IMG/VR virus record: IMGVR_UViG_3300042308_001371
Coordinates: 1 to 64,000 of that record
Length of the DNA stretch: 64,000 nt
DNA from: a virus
Direction: 5' to 3' (one strand)
Shown here: positions 1 through 25,100 of the stretch, piece after piece
Position numbering within the stretch: the first letter of the stretch is position 1
Layout: every line of letters begins with the position of its first letter
Notes under the pieces: generated by a model
Database searches by the model: none
What the model was told of the DNA's origin: nothing
The model's input: only the letters and a program-made list of their open reading frames with translations
Translations under genes and position numbers: made by a program

Positions 1-86
1 GGCATGTCTCTTGCATCTGCAAGGCCTGTGCCAAGCCAGTGCATGCAAGGCCGGTGCCAAGTGGCCCATGCAAGAACGATGCCAAG
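1..86. promoter_or_regulatory. Tandem array of four sigma-54 (-24/-12) consensus sites
   Basis: 1-15 (+) GGCAT-GTCTC-TTGCA (truncated at edge); on - strand 18-35 TGGCAC-AGGCC-TTGCA, 44-61 TGGCAC-CGGCC-TTGCA, 69-86 TGGCAT-CGTTC-TTGCA; all fit TGGCAC-N5-TTGCW spacing. Confidence 0.8.
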
Positions 87-112
87 CCACGGACGGCTGA
101 GCTGTGCGGCTA

Positions 113-134
113 GGGGGGGGGGGGGGTGAGGGGG
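113..134 (+). repeat. G14 homopolymer plus G-run at the GC-rich/AT-rich boundary
   Basis: 14 consecutive G at 113-126, then TGAGGGGG. Confidence 0.9.
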
Positions 135-198
135 ATAGGAGTGTGGAGTTGAAGGTGAATATGCTCCACAATATATTTCCCACTTTATAGTTAGACTG

Positions 199-399
199 TC
201 ACAATAATTCTTTGATCAACGCAGAGGTAGCTACTTGCACAAGCGTTGGTTGGCTGCTATGCTCATCCCACGTTACAATAGCTTTGAACCCTCTTGACAT
301 GTCCATGTCGTAACCACTAGGAAAAACGCTTCGCTCATGCCAGTCTTTTAATAGCTTAGCATATTCTTCTCCAGTTACCCATTTAATCTTATAATTCAT
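199..399 (-). CDS. Small hypothetical protein, C-terminal tag family (SALIKELL)
   Basis: 66 aa; ATGA overlap with upstream gene; shared C-terminal motif. Confidence 0.8.
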   Translation of the reverse strand: MNYKIKWVTGEEYAKLLKDWHERSVFPSGYDMDMSRGFKAIVTWDEHSSQPTLVQVATSALIKELL

Positions 400-5185: not shown

Positions 5186-5195
5186 CACCCTTATA
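5186..5195 (+). promoter_or_regulatory. Putative late promoter motif CACCCTTATA
   Basis: Intergenic, upstream of terminase operon. Confidence 0.7.
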
Positions 5196-11115: not shown

Positions 11116-12069
11116 ATGTCAGAAGAAAATTTGTCTCCAGAATCAGCAGAAGCCCAAACAGACGAAACTCTATCTCAAGAAACTCAAGAGGGTGAAGAGT
11201 CCGGACAAGAAGGTCAATTACAAGATGTGGTAGAAACAGCTCTTGCTAATGGTGCTTCTGAGAAAGAAGTTAAGAGCTTAATCAGAGAATACCAACTCAA
11301 AGTAAATGGTAAAACTATTTCTAAAAAAATTGATTTAGCTGATGAAAACAATCTCCGAAATGAACTACAACTTGCTGCTGCTGCTCGTCAATCTATGCAG
11401 GAATCTGCTAATCTTAAAAAACTATATGAAAGGGAAGTAGGTCGTCTTAAGTCTGATCCTTGGGCTGTTTTACAAGAGCTTGGAATTGACGCAGATGAAA
11501 TGGCTGAGCTTCGTATTCAGCAGCGTATTGAGGAAATGAAGAAATCTCCTGAGCAATTAGAAAGAGAAAAGATCCAAATTGAATTACAGGCTGCTCGTGA
11601 AGAAGCTCGTAAGCTTAAAGAGGAAAGAGATACTGATCAGTTTGAAAAACTTAAAGAACAAGCTGCTGTACAAATTGAATCTGAAATTGAACATGCTTTA
11701 GATGCTCATAAAACTCTTCCTAAATCTCGTCATATTGTTAAGCGTATCGCAGACTCTATGCTATGGGCTATGAATAATGGCTTTGATGATGTTAGTGCTG
11801 AAGATGTCATGCCTCTTGTTGAAAAAGAATGGCGCGATGAAATGAGTCGTCTTATGGATGATTCTCCAGAAGATGTACTTGAGCAATTAATTGGTCAGCG
11901 AAATCTAGAAAGAATGAGAGCCAAGAGACTTAATGTTATGAATACTTCTAATGCTAAGAATGCGAATTCTATCAAATCTACAGCTTCTTCTATCCAAAAA
12001 AAGGAAGAGCCAAGAGGTGAAAAGATCAAGCAACGTGATTTTTTCAAGGCACTAGGTAGATCTAAATAA
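11116..12069 (+). CDS. Capsid scaffolding protein
   Basis: Acidic N-terminus, LKVNGK motif, long coiled coil, basic C-terminus, directly upstream of capsid gene. Confidence 0.8.
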   Translation: MSEENLSPESAEAQTDETLSQETQEGEESGQEGQLQDVVETALANGASEKEVKSLIREYQLKVNGKTISKKIDLADENNLRNELQLAAAARQSMQESANLKKLYEREVGRLKSDPWAVLQELGIDADEMAELRIQQRIEEMKKSPEQLEREKIQIELQAAREEARKLKEERDTDQFEKLKEQAAVQIESEIEHALDAHKTLPKSRHIVKRIADSMLWAMNNGFDDVSAEDVMPLVEKEWRDEMSRLMDDSPEDVLEQLIGQRNLERMRAKRLNVMNTSNAKNANSIKSTASSIQKKEEPRGEKIKQRDFFKALGRSK

Positions 12070-12107
12070 TTGAAATTATTAGGTGCTATAACCATATGAT
12101 ATTATAG

Positions 12108-12117
12108 CACCCTTATA
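12108..12117 (+). promoter_or_regulatory. Putative late promoter motif CACCCTTATA (capsid gene)
   Basis: Intergenic; overlaps inverted repeat 12082-12111. Confidence 0.7.
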
Positions 12118-12243
12118 CAATAGCTGGTGTATTTAGTACAGACGATGCCTCCAAATATCTAAGGACTTTGGACAAGCTAGTTAGGAAGAATATAACTTAG
12201 TTATAAACAACTTAACAAAACTTATAGAAACAAGGAAAATTAA

Positions 12244-21500: not shown

Positions 21501-24011
21501 ATTATAGGTAGTCTAACAATTAGCGGATCTCAGACAAATAGAGTTCGTGTTCAGGATATTGAGTTTACCCCAACTTCTGGTTATGCTTTAGTTATTAACG
21601 ATACTCAAGGAAGACATTTATTTCAGAATTGTGGTTTTGTAAATGGATCAGTCGCTGGTCAAGCTGGAACAGGAGTAAATTTAACTAGTACTTATAGAAA
21701 TTTTCTTGAATTTGTAGATTGTACAATTGAAGGTACTTTAAACATCGCAGGAACTCCCGTAGCTGGTACGACTGTTTTAATGTATCGTTGTAAGCTCGGT
21801 TATGCGAATGTTATTGTAAATAGTGCAAATATTGCCGTTGGAATATATGATACCTATGGTATCTATGGACTTACTCATACCGCTGGTGCTTTGGCAATTA
21901 CTGGGTTGTGGGGAATTGCTCAGACTGGATTTTTTAATTCAACTGCAACTTTAACTGCCACTAACGTATTAAGTCTTTCAAACGTCTCACTACAAAAACC
22001 TGATTTAAGTTTTGTTGCTTTAAATAAAACAGGAACATGTTTTTATCAATTGATGAATGTACATCGTGGGGAAACTGCTGATGTTTTAAATGGCACGAGA
22101 GTTGTATATGGTCCAACTGCTACCGATGCCGGGTATAAAATGGGTACATCAGGAAACTGGCCCGCTGCAGTATCTAACGTGGCTGGGGCTTTAGATAGCT
22201 TAGCTGCTAATAAAATTGCTATAACCCAAAAAGCTGCAATAAATGGAGTAGCTTCTCTTGATGGAACTGGTAAAGTTCCTCTTTCTCAGCTTCCTGCATC
22301 TACATTTGCAGCTGATGTATTAGAGTTTGCTAATTTAGCAGCATTTCCTATACCCGGAGCAGCGGGAATTGTATATGTAGCGTTAGATACTAATAAAATA
22401 TATAGATGGAATACAACAGTTTATACTGAGTTATCTACAGCTCCAGTTACTTCTGTTAATGGAAAAACTAACGTAGTTACTCTAAATGCAATAGATGTGC
22501 CATTTTCTCCTACAGCAACTATTTTATCAACCGATGTACAGTCGGCTATTGTTGAAATTCAAGCTGCATCCACATCAACGGCTATTTATCAAGATACAAA
22601 AGAACCTACTGGATTTTTAAATAGAACAGATTCGGCTATTTCTTTTGTCGATGGTACTAGAATTTTTACAATTGCACCAGTTACAACTTCATTTGATTTT
22701 TATATTAAAGGTACTAAGTTTACAAAAAGTACTGCACAGAATTTAACTATTCCTAATTTATCAGGAAATCATTATATTTACTTTAATACTTCTGGAGTTT
22801 TAGAATCTACCCAAATATTTAGTAGTGATATTATTGAGCAGAATGCTTTTGTTTCAGTTATTTATTGGAACACAGATTTAAATACCCATACGTATTTTGC
22901 AGAAGAGAGACATGGTATAACGATGGATGGGGCAACTCACATATACCTACATACTACTTTTGGAGCAAGGTACTTATCAGGATTAGCCTTACAAGGTTTT
23001 ACGCCTGATGGTAATGGTAGTCTTGATGCACATGCTCAGTTTACCGCTGATGAAGGCTCTATTAGAGATGAAGATATACTTTTATCAAGTGCAGCTCAGG
23101 CTCAGATTCCTATTCTTTTCAGACAAGGCCAGTTATGGAGAAAAAAGGCAGCGGATGCATTTCCTTTAATCTATAGCGGTACAGCTGGATATACAGGAGC
23201 CAATGGAAGAATTCCATATAATCAATTCGTTGCGGGATCTTGGCAGTTAACACAAGTAACTAGCGGGGATTATGTATTAGTACATTTTTTTGCAACAAAC
23301 GATAAAGAGAATCCTATTGTAGGTATTCAAGGTATTGCTCAATATAATAATGCTCCACAAGCAAAAGCTGCGGCAAGTACTGAAATTACTAGTCTATCTG
23401 GACTTCCTTTTGCAGAATTTGTAGCAATTGGTACAGTTTTGTTCCAAACTAATACTTATGCTAATACTCCAGATGCTAGGGTTGTGAGTGTAAATGGAGC
23501 TACTTACATTGATTTTAGAGGAACTCAGCTTTATACTCCAGCTGGAGAAGCGACTACTCATAGTCTTTTGTCAGGATTAAGTAACGATGATCATATCCAA
23601 TACCATACTGATGCTAGAGGAGATATCAGATACTATACAAAAGCTCAGGTAGATACCCTAATAACTGGAATAACATCTACGGGAGACATTGATGAGAAGT
23701 TGTTTAGCATTTCAAATTCACAGGCACTTCCAGACAATGTCCATAATTTTGTATTTTCAAATTCAATTGTAAGAGCATTTGAAGCACTTGTATCTATTGA
23801 AATAGAGGCGACCGCTTCATTGTATGAGACTGTTAAGATTTCAGGAATTCAGAAAGGATCTGACTGGGATATCACCCTTATTTCTAGTGGGGATATTAGT
23901 GGTGTGGCCTTTAGTATTACTACTTCTGGTCAAATTCAGTATACGTCGGATAACGTGGCTGGTTTTGTTTCTGGAATCCTTAAATTTAGGGCAATTACAA
24001 CCTCAGTATAA
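18504..24011 (+). CDS. Large mosaic tail fibre/spike (1835 aa)
   Basis: Three copies of LASFP..G..LY.A.DT...Y.W....YVE + VTSVN; GLGNVDNTSDADKP; DAATKKYVD; SG-rich beta-helix. Confidence 0.85.
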   Translation: MANTLLRIGYISGSGGGGGISQYPDLASFPPTGSVNVLYFAIDTAKLYAWDGATYVEASPSLVTSVNTQVGDVVLDKSDVGLGNVDNTSDADKPISDDTQAALDALDDRIIPIEDRAEVLTVYAYENNTQVYADGQPGIKDPSALIRDGWYFKNSIAGQKINWYYFDGTSQGSITLGDFKSAYAVMTFDAVSGAASPIIAIYTFPTGAGDVIPGFAHSRIVYDGPMTPTPVVGKQYLVYVGENPSVNPELPRINLSLIPGLSIGDKLPTEQILTISFGSSSGVAVNQIQYMVETLGLFSDPVKHEMDLRIRVASEDALDLKVAKAGDTMSGLLDITVTGAAALEANDIVIGNPWGAGYSVITGKDGSTDALYIQSADQLGTFAGNSSKPVTVGSGYTQGANSGAVEVLSAPAAVSGASGSVYIHSGDTVGATGFTTVKSGNSSSSSTGTAVLRSGDAAVSSGNTQVRSGNSVANSGVTSLLSGQSSGGSSGQVQVQSGAAAVASGNILISSGSAATRGLVQIDGSKLNMLTSIDMNSSKITELLDPTDNQDAATKKYVDDKDALKQSLIDKNQANGYVGLNGSTKIDSIYLPSYVDDVLEFASLSVFPLVGETGIIYLALDTNLCYRWAGSVYVEISAAPVISVNTKVGAVVLDKTDIGLDQVDNTSDADKQISDATQLALDDKVSKTGDTMTGQLTMQDDSILIDASISEGMPNTLLLESGTIQSTVINGDITSTSILYPYQHSIQTTDSVSTSNTSLTISAEHNAPILEVSIVNAETEMDSTVNILNSGLYVTNIDYTNNNELLGNFIAGSFIIETILADSSNSTIVGDPTGITLSSFDGDVTTEPLMPATDFHVTVKKYVDDADDLKENLANKSIDGTLASNSDTLYPSQKAVKTYVDSVSGGGTANFEASTYYHELHVNYDFTGATSDGSPYRPFKTTQAAVNAAQLQNIGGNTAILIHLKNDINIVENIAITNAVSNLYIMPAVRNNTSSAPLKIIGSLTISGSQTNRVRVQDIEFTPTSGYALVINDTQGRHLFQNCGFVNGSVAGQAGTGVNLTSTYRNFLEFVDCTIEGTLNIAGTPVAGTTVLMYRCKLGYANVIVNSANIAVGIYDTYGIYGLTHTAGALAITGLWGIAQTGFFNSTATLTATNVLSLSNVSLQKPDLSFVALNKTGTCFYQLMNVHRGETADVLNGTRVVYGPTATDAGYKMGTSGNWPAAVSNVAGALDSLAANKIAITQKAAINGVASLDGTGKVPLSQLPASTFAADVLEFANLAAFPIPGAAGIVYVALDTNKIYRWNTTVYTELSTAPVTSVNGKTNVVTLNAIDVPFSPTATILSTDVQSAIVEIQAASTSTAIYQDTKEPTGFLNRTDSAISFVDGTRIFTIAPVTTSFDFYIKGTKFTKSTAQNLTIPNLSGNHYIYFNTSGVLESTQIFSSDIIEQNAFVSVIYWNTDLNTHTYFAEERHGITMDGATHIYLHTTFGARYLSGLALQGFTPDGNGSLDAHAQFTADEGSIRDEDILLSSAAQAQIPILFRQGQLWRKKAADAFPLIYSGTAGYTGANGRIPYNQFVAGSWQLTQVTSGDYVLVHFFATNDKENPIVGIQGIAQYNNAPQAKAAASTEITSLSGLPFAEFVAIGTVLFQTNTYANTPDARVVSVNGATYIDFRGTQLYTPAGEATTHSLLSGLSNDDHIQYHTDARGDIRYYTKAQVDTLITGITSTGDIDEKLFSISNSQALPDNVHNFVFSNSIVRAFEALVSIEIEATASLYETVKISGIQKGSDWDITLISSGDISGVAFSITTSGQIQYTSDNVAGFVSGILKFRAITTSV

Positions 24012-24045
24012 TGTAATTTCGGCTATTTAAATACGGCATAGAAAG

Positions 24046-24055
24046 CACCCTTATA
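24046..24055 (+). promoter_or_regulatory. Putative late promoter motif CACCCTTATA
   Basis: Intergenic. Confidence 0.7.
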
Positions 24056-24068
24056 ATACAGAGGTAAC

Positions 24069-24914
24069 ATGGCACAGGTAAAGCCTAATCCAAATTCATT
24101 CTATGATCCGGGCTTAATTGTCAAGGAAATCCATGACTTACATGCTAAGTCTATTAGGGTATCCGATACTAGATCCGTAGTAGATAAGTTTTATACTCAC
24201 TTTAGGGTTTTATACACTGAGCTAAATTTACCATCAGAAGTTTCTTATTTTAGAGGAACAAGATCTCATACAACTATAATAGGTTGTGTTGATGATGTTG
24301 AAGCCTCCCTCCAAAATTCATATATTAAAATATACTCCTGTCCAGATAATACTCCATTCCATATTTGGTTTAATGTAGATAATCTAGGAGTTCCCCCAAC
24401 AATTCCCGGATCTACTGCAATTGAGATTCCTATAAATAAAAATGAAGGATCTTCTGTTATATCTATGGCTGTGGGTTTAATTATAAACTCTTTGTTTAAA
24501 TCTGATTTTTCAGTATCTAGATCTAATTCGGTTGTTGAAATTACAGCGGTTGGAATGGGTGAGATACTCGATTCATCAGACGAAGGAACTGGGTTTGCGT
24601 TAGTAAACTCTAGAGGAGAGCAGGAATTAGCTAATTATATTCAAATAGGATATCAGGATCTGCATCCTGTATATAAAGGACAAGTTTTAAAAAATTACAT
24701 CTTTAATGTATTTTCTGGACAATTTGAAATTAAAGAAGAGCTTCCAACAACTATTCAAGAAGTGGTCTGGGATGAAATTGTAACAACATTTCCACTTGAA
24801 AATCAAGAGCTGTATTCTTATAAATATAACTCTAATTTAGTTCAAGAAATGCTAGTAACTTATATTGATGCTACAAAAAAAGCAATAGTATCTATTCAAA
24901 AGACAAGGTATTAA
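24069..24914 (+). CDS. Putative virion structural protein
   Basis: Contains FHIWFNV...IEIPI module also present in nozzle protein. Confidence 0.65.
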   Translation: MAQVKPNPNSFYDPGLIVKEIHDLHAKSIRVSDTRSVVDKFYTHFRVLYTELNLPSEVSYFRGTRSHTTIIGCVDDVEASLQNSYIKIYSCPDNTPFHIWFNVDNLGVPPTIPGSTAIEIPINKNEGSSVISMAVGLIINSLFKSDFSVSRSNSVVEITAVGMGEILDSSDEGTGFALVNSRGEQELANYIQIGYQDLHPVYKGQVLKNYIFNVFSGQFEIKEELPTTIQEVVWDEIVTTFPLENQELYSYKYNSNLVQEMLVTYIDATKKAIVSIQKTRY

Positions 24915-25100
24915 ATGTCTTGGAAATTTGATCCATTTATTATGAGTCTAATCTGGGTAGCTCCAATCTCTATTGTAGATAATGTAGGGGATATCGACAT
25001 GGGTACAGTAGATAGCGATATTATAATTGACATGGGTTCTAGAGAGGATAGTCCTTCTGGCATTGATCAGGGATTAAGAGTATACGATGGCGATTTTTAA
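24915..25100 (+). CDS. Small putative structural protein
   Basis: 61 aa; coupled. Confidence 0.6.
   Translation: MSWKFDPFIMSLIWVAPISIVDNVGDIDMGTVDSDIIIDMGSREDSPSGIDQGLRVYDGDF

Follow-up and report, generated by a model that had tools for sequence, protein, structure and literature searches.

Bacterial promoters of the sigma-54 (RpoN) class, such as glnAp2, pspA and nifH, follow the consensus YTGGCACGrNNNTTGCW and occur singly with an upstream activator site, and the sigma-54 holoenzyme binds DNA stably without starting transcription unless an ATPase activator is present. Opposed promoters are known from coliphages 186 and P2, in which face-to-face sigma-70 promoters acting as switches lie tens of bp apart. 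Phage use of the sigma-54 route is documented for essentially one promoter, the sigma-54-like P015 of Pseudomonas phage YuA, which has a mapped start site (Ceyssens 2008, cited in PMC10914365), and in E. coli widespread intragenic sigma-54 binding sites, mostly unproductive, have been described (PMC4591121). Repeated regulatory modules are represented by the T4-type PeSL cassette, which combines a sigma-70 promoter with a true poly-G/poly-C stem-loop (PMC2839356).

Here we describe near-perfect predicted sigma-54 sites that are stacked within an early control region of an uncultured lake phage of ~82 kb. The stretch analysed (the window, 64,000 nucleotides) comprises bases 1-64000 of an 81,765-bp IMG/VR virus record (the contig), such that window base 1 is contig base 1. 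The minus strand of window bases 1-86 holds three exact TGGCAY-N5-TTGCA sites with start-to-start distances of 26 and 25 nt (Table 1), and the window as a whole contains four exact matches versus 0.04 expected from shuffled sequences. The rightward site at the window edge retains GG and GC and is one base off the exact pattern, its first base being known because the contig ends share bases 1-126, so that an A precedes window position 1. Together with the leftward site at 18-33 it forms a head-to-head pair with a gap of 2 bp. Judged against the bacterial pattern, GG and GC 10 bp apart within TGGCAC-N5-TTGCW, three sites of bases 1-86 are exact and the fourth has one mismatch, and the spacers of the four sites are all unlike (AGGCC, CGGCC, CGTTC and GTCTC). 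An initial annotation of this DNA had counted four matches in 86 bp; the three leftward ones are indeed exact with a period of 25-26 nt, whereas the rightward one is mismatched, and the tight packing and mixed orientation that it pointed out are both real.

Table 1. Features at the start of the window (window coordinates unless stated otherwise)
Feature	Position	Strand	Remarks
Rightward sigma-54-like site	1-15, cut by window edge; complete site AGGCATGTCTCTTGCA at contig 81625-81640	+	First base A, not T
Exact -24/-12 site TGGCACAGGCCTTGCA	18-33	-	Pattern match
Exact -24/-12 site TGGCACCGGCCTTGCA	44-59	-	26 nt from site 18-33
Exact -24/-12 site TGGCATCGTTCTTGCA	69-84	-	25 nt from site 44-59
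GC-rich linker from array to poly-G run	87-112		GCCAGCC/CTCAGCC-like words in relatives
Poly-G run	113-126	+	14 G long; the opposite contig end has 18 G and relatives have 8-14 G
Single-copy non-coding element	127-211	+	80-89% conserved in relatives; adjoins array
Last gene of leftward block 199-2911	199-399	-	Stop codon abuts conserved element

The phage sites share with bacterial sigma-54 promoters the -24 GG, the -12 GC, their 10-bp spacing and the purine after TGGCAC, and the leftward sites also have a gene ahead in the same direction, but they recur at 25-26-nt intervals and form head-to-head pairs, a geometry with hardly any counterpart in 596 Gb of bacterial genomes, and neither an activator gene nor a clear enhancer was found for them in the phage. 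Searches of the phage proteins gave no PF00158 match above cut-off for an enhancer-binding ATPase (best match, 11 bits) and no Sigma54_DBD match for a sigma-54, and no clear upstream activator site was found near the array. As with P015 of YuA, a phage would be using the host sigma-54 route, the start being mapped there and the sites predicted here; YuA has no exact consensus site, no array and no pair, and its one-mismatch matches are no commoner than those of a reversed-pattern control. If the array served for docking, it would resemble the E. coli intragenic sites in holding inactive bound holoenzyme with no obvious gene to drive, although those sites are scattered singles inside genes and the phage sites form dense intergenic arrays and palindromes. 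The arrangement also recalls the switches of 186 and P2 in that opposed promoters with interfering polymerases would sit at the boundary of divergent programmes, but in the present phage a mere 2 bp separates the -12 boxes of the pair, and the sites occur in multiple copies. Finally, the locus shares with the PeSL cassettes a set of regulatory modules repeated among small early genes close to G-rich tracts, and differs from them in that the arms of the array do not pair.

The array is part of a wider cluster. A search requiring GG, GC and at least six of the seven other consensus letters gave 13 sites in 2.4 kb (contig 79401-81625 plus 1-130) versus 5 in the other 79 kb. Moreover, of the 14 TGGCA words in the cluster, 10 have a TTGC at exactly +11 and none has one at another offset between 5 and 35, versus 1 of 99 such words with TTGC at +11 elsewhere in the genome. 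The orientation of the cluster sites is mixed, about half of them facing away from genes or lacking a reading frame ahead, and a second head-to-head pair with the same A-variant occurs at contig 80380/80398. The expectation in the initial annotation that the array continues beyond the window was half right: the contig closes on itself, as indicated by the recurrence of window bases 1-126 at contig 81626-81751, and across this junction there follow another leftward site at 81603 and eight more sites at 79698-81195. Rfam and tRNA scans of the cluster returned sub-threshold noise only, and the cluster contains no DnaA-box matches.

The sites are retained in related viruses. Sixteen viral contigs encode a terminase that is 62-99% identical to that of the phage, and wherever such a contig spans the region, sigma-54-type sites occupy the corresponding position directly left of the poly-G element, their boxes intact and their spacers and linkers unrelated. 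In an alignment with the relative L017 over a 1-kb non-coding stretch (contig 79400-80450, 71% identity), sites at matching positions are retained, and changes within them are confined to the spacer or fall within the Y and W positions. What relatives keep is thus GG, GC and their spacing, the opposite of the linker conservation that had been named beforehand as counting against sigma-54 sites, and the variation of N5 and linkers around constant boxes is borne out in the array as well as among relatives. These patterns support the view that the sites are sigma-54-type boxes under selection. Searches for close relatives with the flanking SprT-like protein and with the exact tandem DNA pattern gave no matches, and BLAST against cultured phages likewise yielded nothing for the array region or for two array-rich contigs.

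The start of the window is not supported as a physical genome end. The two contig ends have 126 nt in common and then diverge inside the poly-G run, the 18-G end also bearing error-like letters. When the ends are joined, the 96%-identical relative L016 aligns across the join as a single colinear block, and L016 and four more distant relatives (five in all) read through the poly-G run. The contig break therefore looks like an assembly break in the poly-G run, and since it falls there, the window edge is no evidence for a genome end.

The array sits in a control gap of ~500 bp between two leftward early gene blocks, all nearby reading frames being leftward, namely those of 199-2911 to one side and the small genes of contig 80456-81448 to the other. 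A SprT-like metalloprotease gene (contig 81074-81448) comes first among these small genes, and the three leftward array sites and the contig 81603 site lie 140-250 nt upstream of it in the same direction, whereas the rightward site has no plus-strand gene ahead before 3316. Each of the three small leftward genes adjoining the array has its own strong TTGACA-17-TATAAT promoter, indicating that the host reads canonical sigma-70 promoters. Several sites have plus-strand promoters of the extended -10 type 45-150 nt upstream, and one such promoter is followed in relatives by a frame of 37-45 residues that ends just before the array, while here this frame has only three codons. Roughly 40-130 nt upstream of the leftward sites is the single-copy element, whose conservation exceeds that of the flanking genes. 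It contains a sigma-70-like plus-strand promoter at 149-177 (TTGAAG-17-TATATT) as well as a box at 176-205 that resembles the phage late-promoter box at 5186, TAGACTGTCACA following both. Judged by these motifs, transcription might be initiated rightward from window 113-211, antisense to the early block 199-2911. The consensus fold of the element is weak (-4.6 kcal/mol, one covarying pair). With the array, the poly-G run and a conserved element bearing a promoter and a late-type box all together, the gap appears to be a regulatory hub.

The same motif recurs in many other viruses. The head-to-head 34-mer is present in at least 48 viral contigs (33-60% GC), and tandem arrays, defined as two same-sense sites 7-12 nt apart, in at least 119, among which periods of 26-27 nt are favoured and as many as 12 sites occur in 300 bp; overall, the contigs with the motif span 33-65% GC. 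By contrast, 596 Gb of bacterial and archaeal genomes contain only two head-to-head pairs, one of which is a viral contig binned in a Burkholderiaceae genome. Because dense arrays and palindromes of perfect sites turn up in unrelated phages but hardly at all in bacteria, phages appear to exploit the sigma-54 polymerase in a manner that we did not find described in the literature. Intergenic sites in the tandem-array contigs point toward the next gene in 231 cases and not in 59, although the largest tandem array of contig G003 points against the next gene, lying in the opposite sense between plus-strand sites and a plus-strand gene. No protein family common to all carriers of arrays or pairs was found. 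Of 165 viral loci with an array or a pair, 21 have a GP88 homologue encoded a few kb away at most, in some cases as the first gene after the array, and GP88 was rejected as a shared phage-encoded reader, being absent from PAK_P3 and from three array-rich contigs. The SprT-like gene was likewise discarded as a shared reader, as the proteins of the phage and of the Pakpunaviruses are not significantly alike and the association does not hold generally.

Among the pair-bearing contigs, five belong to Pakpunavirus phages of Pseudomonas aeruginosa, the host of the cultured carriers, which has RpoN. In Pseudomonas phage Ab02 (LN610572), the 1.16-kb terminal repeat, with four exact sites per copy, and one gene-free gap of 620 bp account for all 11 exact sites (L078 (LN610572) 23888-25001 and 12012-12197), no exact site being present in the other 91 kb, and PAK_P3 has two sites in the equivalent gap. 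A SprT-like gene directly follows the pair in Ab02, as in the present phage. The presence of the motif in terminal repeats and a gene-free gap of cultured Pakpunaviruses makes the question of its role open to bench testing. Genome papers on the Pakpunavirus group describe only sigma-70 repeats (PMC4309531), and a transposon screen with the Pakpunavirus C11 did not hit rpoN, but as this screen was not saturating it is uninformative on rpoN. According to a Hi-C preprint (10.64898/2025.12.15.694284), the 45-75 kb stretch of PAK_P3 has two gene-free untranscribed anchors of an early hairpin-like fold, given without coordinates. Sigma-54-like sites occur in only one of the two gene-free gaps of this stretch, and we regard a tie between these sites and the anchors as a lead, not as evidence.

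Taken at the level of sequence, the array probably constitutes binding sites for the host sigma-54 RNA polymerase holoenzyme, and it is plausible that the host has sigma-54. Letter for letter, the motif agrees with the sigma-54 consensus, and this extends to positions outside the search pattern: the purine after TGGCAC and the pyrimidine before TGG of the extended consensus are matched by a purine after TGGCAY in 85 of 88 arms of the viral pairs and by a T before TGG in 30 of 47 sites of the lineage of the phage. A motif that is constant across unrelated phages of 33-65% GC, with no family common to its carriers, also indicates a conserved host reader. It is improbable, by comparison, that the reader is a phage-encoded or other protein and that the sites are replication iterons or recognition sites for partition or terminase, although palindromes and tandem repeats are typical of such sites, the large terminase gene is 0.8-1.5 kb away in 8 of the 48 pair-bearing contigs, the Pakpunavirus sites lie in a terminal repeat and a GP88-family gene is near the 21 of 165 arrays mentioned above. 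Neither GP88 nor the SprT-like protein is general among the carriers, which argues against a reader of phage origin. A terminase recognition site would be single and would lie next to the terminase genes or at the mapped genome ends; here the array lies 5.9 kb from the large terminase gene, with the 2.7-kb leftward block in between, and the cluster sites extend over 2.4 kb. Iterons at a replication origin were rejected for lack of DnaA boxes and because the array is GC-rich, not AT-rich, and flanked by the SprT-like protease and small unassigned genes. Far less probable still is that the sigma-54 likeness is incidental to a recombination-prone PeSL-type cassette or to a hairpin or terminator. 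Here, too, the array is located among small early genes that each have a sigma-70 promoter, as PeSLs are, and the pair at 80380/80398 follows a terminator and is in turn followed by a minus-strand T run. However, PeSL stems are poly-G/poly-C and not sigma-54-like, Watson-Crick pairing between pair arms amounts to 25%, below the 34 ± 3% of shuffled partners, the fold of 1-215 is no better than that of shuffles (z = -0.4) and no terminator was found in 1-450. The missing complementarity largely refutes this reading, and an RNA hairpin or intrinsic terminator was rejected. With arms that are not complementary and a region that folds no better than shuffles, recognition of duplex DNA is indicated.

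With sigma-54 holoenzyme as the probable reader, we rank first, as a tentative reading with close to an even chance, that the sites are stacked conditional promoters feeding the leftward early genes. The leftward sites would then be mutually exclusive, enhancer-dependent promoters at which a host activator gates a conditional route into the SprT-like block, beside the block's own sigma-70 promoter, and the opposed site would form a compact pair that could also fire rightward. This reading is favoured by the aim of the tandem-array sites at the next gene (231 versus 59), which the three leftward sites share at the usual distance, and by the precedent of YuA P015 (PMC10914365). Against it stand the absence of an enhancer-binding ATPase and a sigma-54 from the phage, with no clear upstream activator site found, the strong sigma-70 promoters of the three adjoining genes, the half of the cluster sites that face away or have no gene ahead, the G003 array opposing its next gene, and the 25-26-nt period and 2-bp gap, which bar several holoenzymes from loading side by side. 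A strong rival, ranked second and by our estimate rather unlikely, is that the sites are not promoters but dock holoenzyme or free sigma-54 as stable closed complexes that do not transcribe. The array might then drain the host sigma-54 programme as a sink, separate transcription units as a roadblock or insulator, or provide an architectural anchor. Dense packing and mixed orientation suit docking, as do the head-to-head pairs, in which each site covers the melting region of the other and which are so much commoner in viral contigs than in bacterial genomes, the reading of double-stranded DNA implied by the non-complementary arms, the lack of a phage-encoded activator, the G003 array placed in opposite sense between plus-strand sites and a plus-strand gene, and the RNA-seq-based annotation of PAK_P3, which lists no transcript in the gap with its two sites. 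A pure sink should nevertheless be indifferent to orientation, yet tandem-array sites favour the direction of the next gene by about 4 to 1.

The broader proposition that many phage lineages carry purpose-built parking arrays for sigma-54 polymerase, unused by bacteria themselves, is possible but on balance doubtful. If it held, head-to-head palindromes and 26-27-nt tandems would keep inert closed complexes on early-entering or boundary DNA and might serve as a sink for the host sigma-54 stress programme, as a roadblock or as a folding anchor for the phage chromosome. We consider it quite unlikely that the array is a DNA-entry or genome-end device that is on the first-entering DNA and holds or pulls it via bound polymerase. 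Eight of the 11 exact sites of Ab02 are within terminal repeats, the ends of the Pakpunavirus-group phage C11 have been mapped experimentally (PMC5175280) and three independent assemblies stop at or near the poly-G run; however, a homopolymer run by itself accounts for contig breaks, the run is read straight through in five relatives, closed sigma-54 complexes do not translocate without an activator and the remaining cluster sites are scattered across 2 kb.

Several further observations were made in the course of this analysis. A strong terminator belonging to the gene at 80456-80758 immediately precedes the second head-to-head pair (contig 80380-80445), which has A7 and T7 runs on its flanks and a T run after it on the minus strand. 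The ~1 kb at contig 79400-80450 has no convincing gene and includes six sigma-54-like sites that together cover both senses, a possible hydrophobic frame of 27 residues and, on the plus strand, conserved promoters of the extended -10 type with GAGGGTAAGA after them. A GP88-family protein (PF17338, function not assigned) is encoded at contig 77000-77707. In PAK_P3, the gap at 62.8-63.7 kb (L080 12817-13739), one of the two gene-free gaps in the Hi-C anchor stretch, contains at least seven TTGTGTAAC-type repeats and is possibly an origin. Lastly, contig G003 (57 kb; L201 1-127, L202 4981-5272) is classed in IMG/VR as having direct terminal repeats, but the 'repeat' consists of at least five identical 26-nt sigma-54-like units, and the class may therefore be an artefact of the array.
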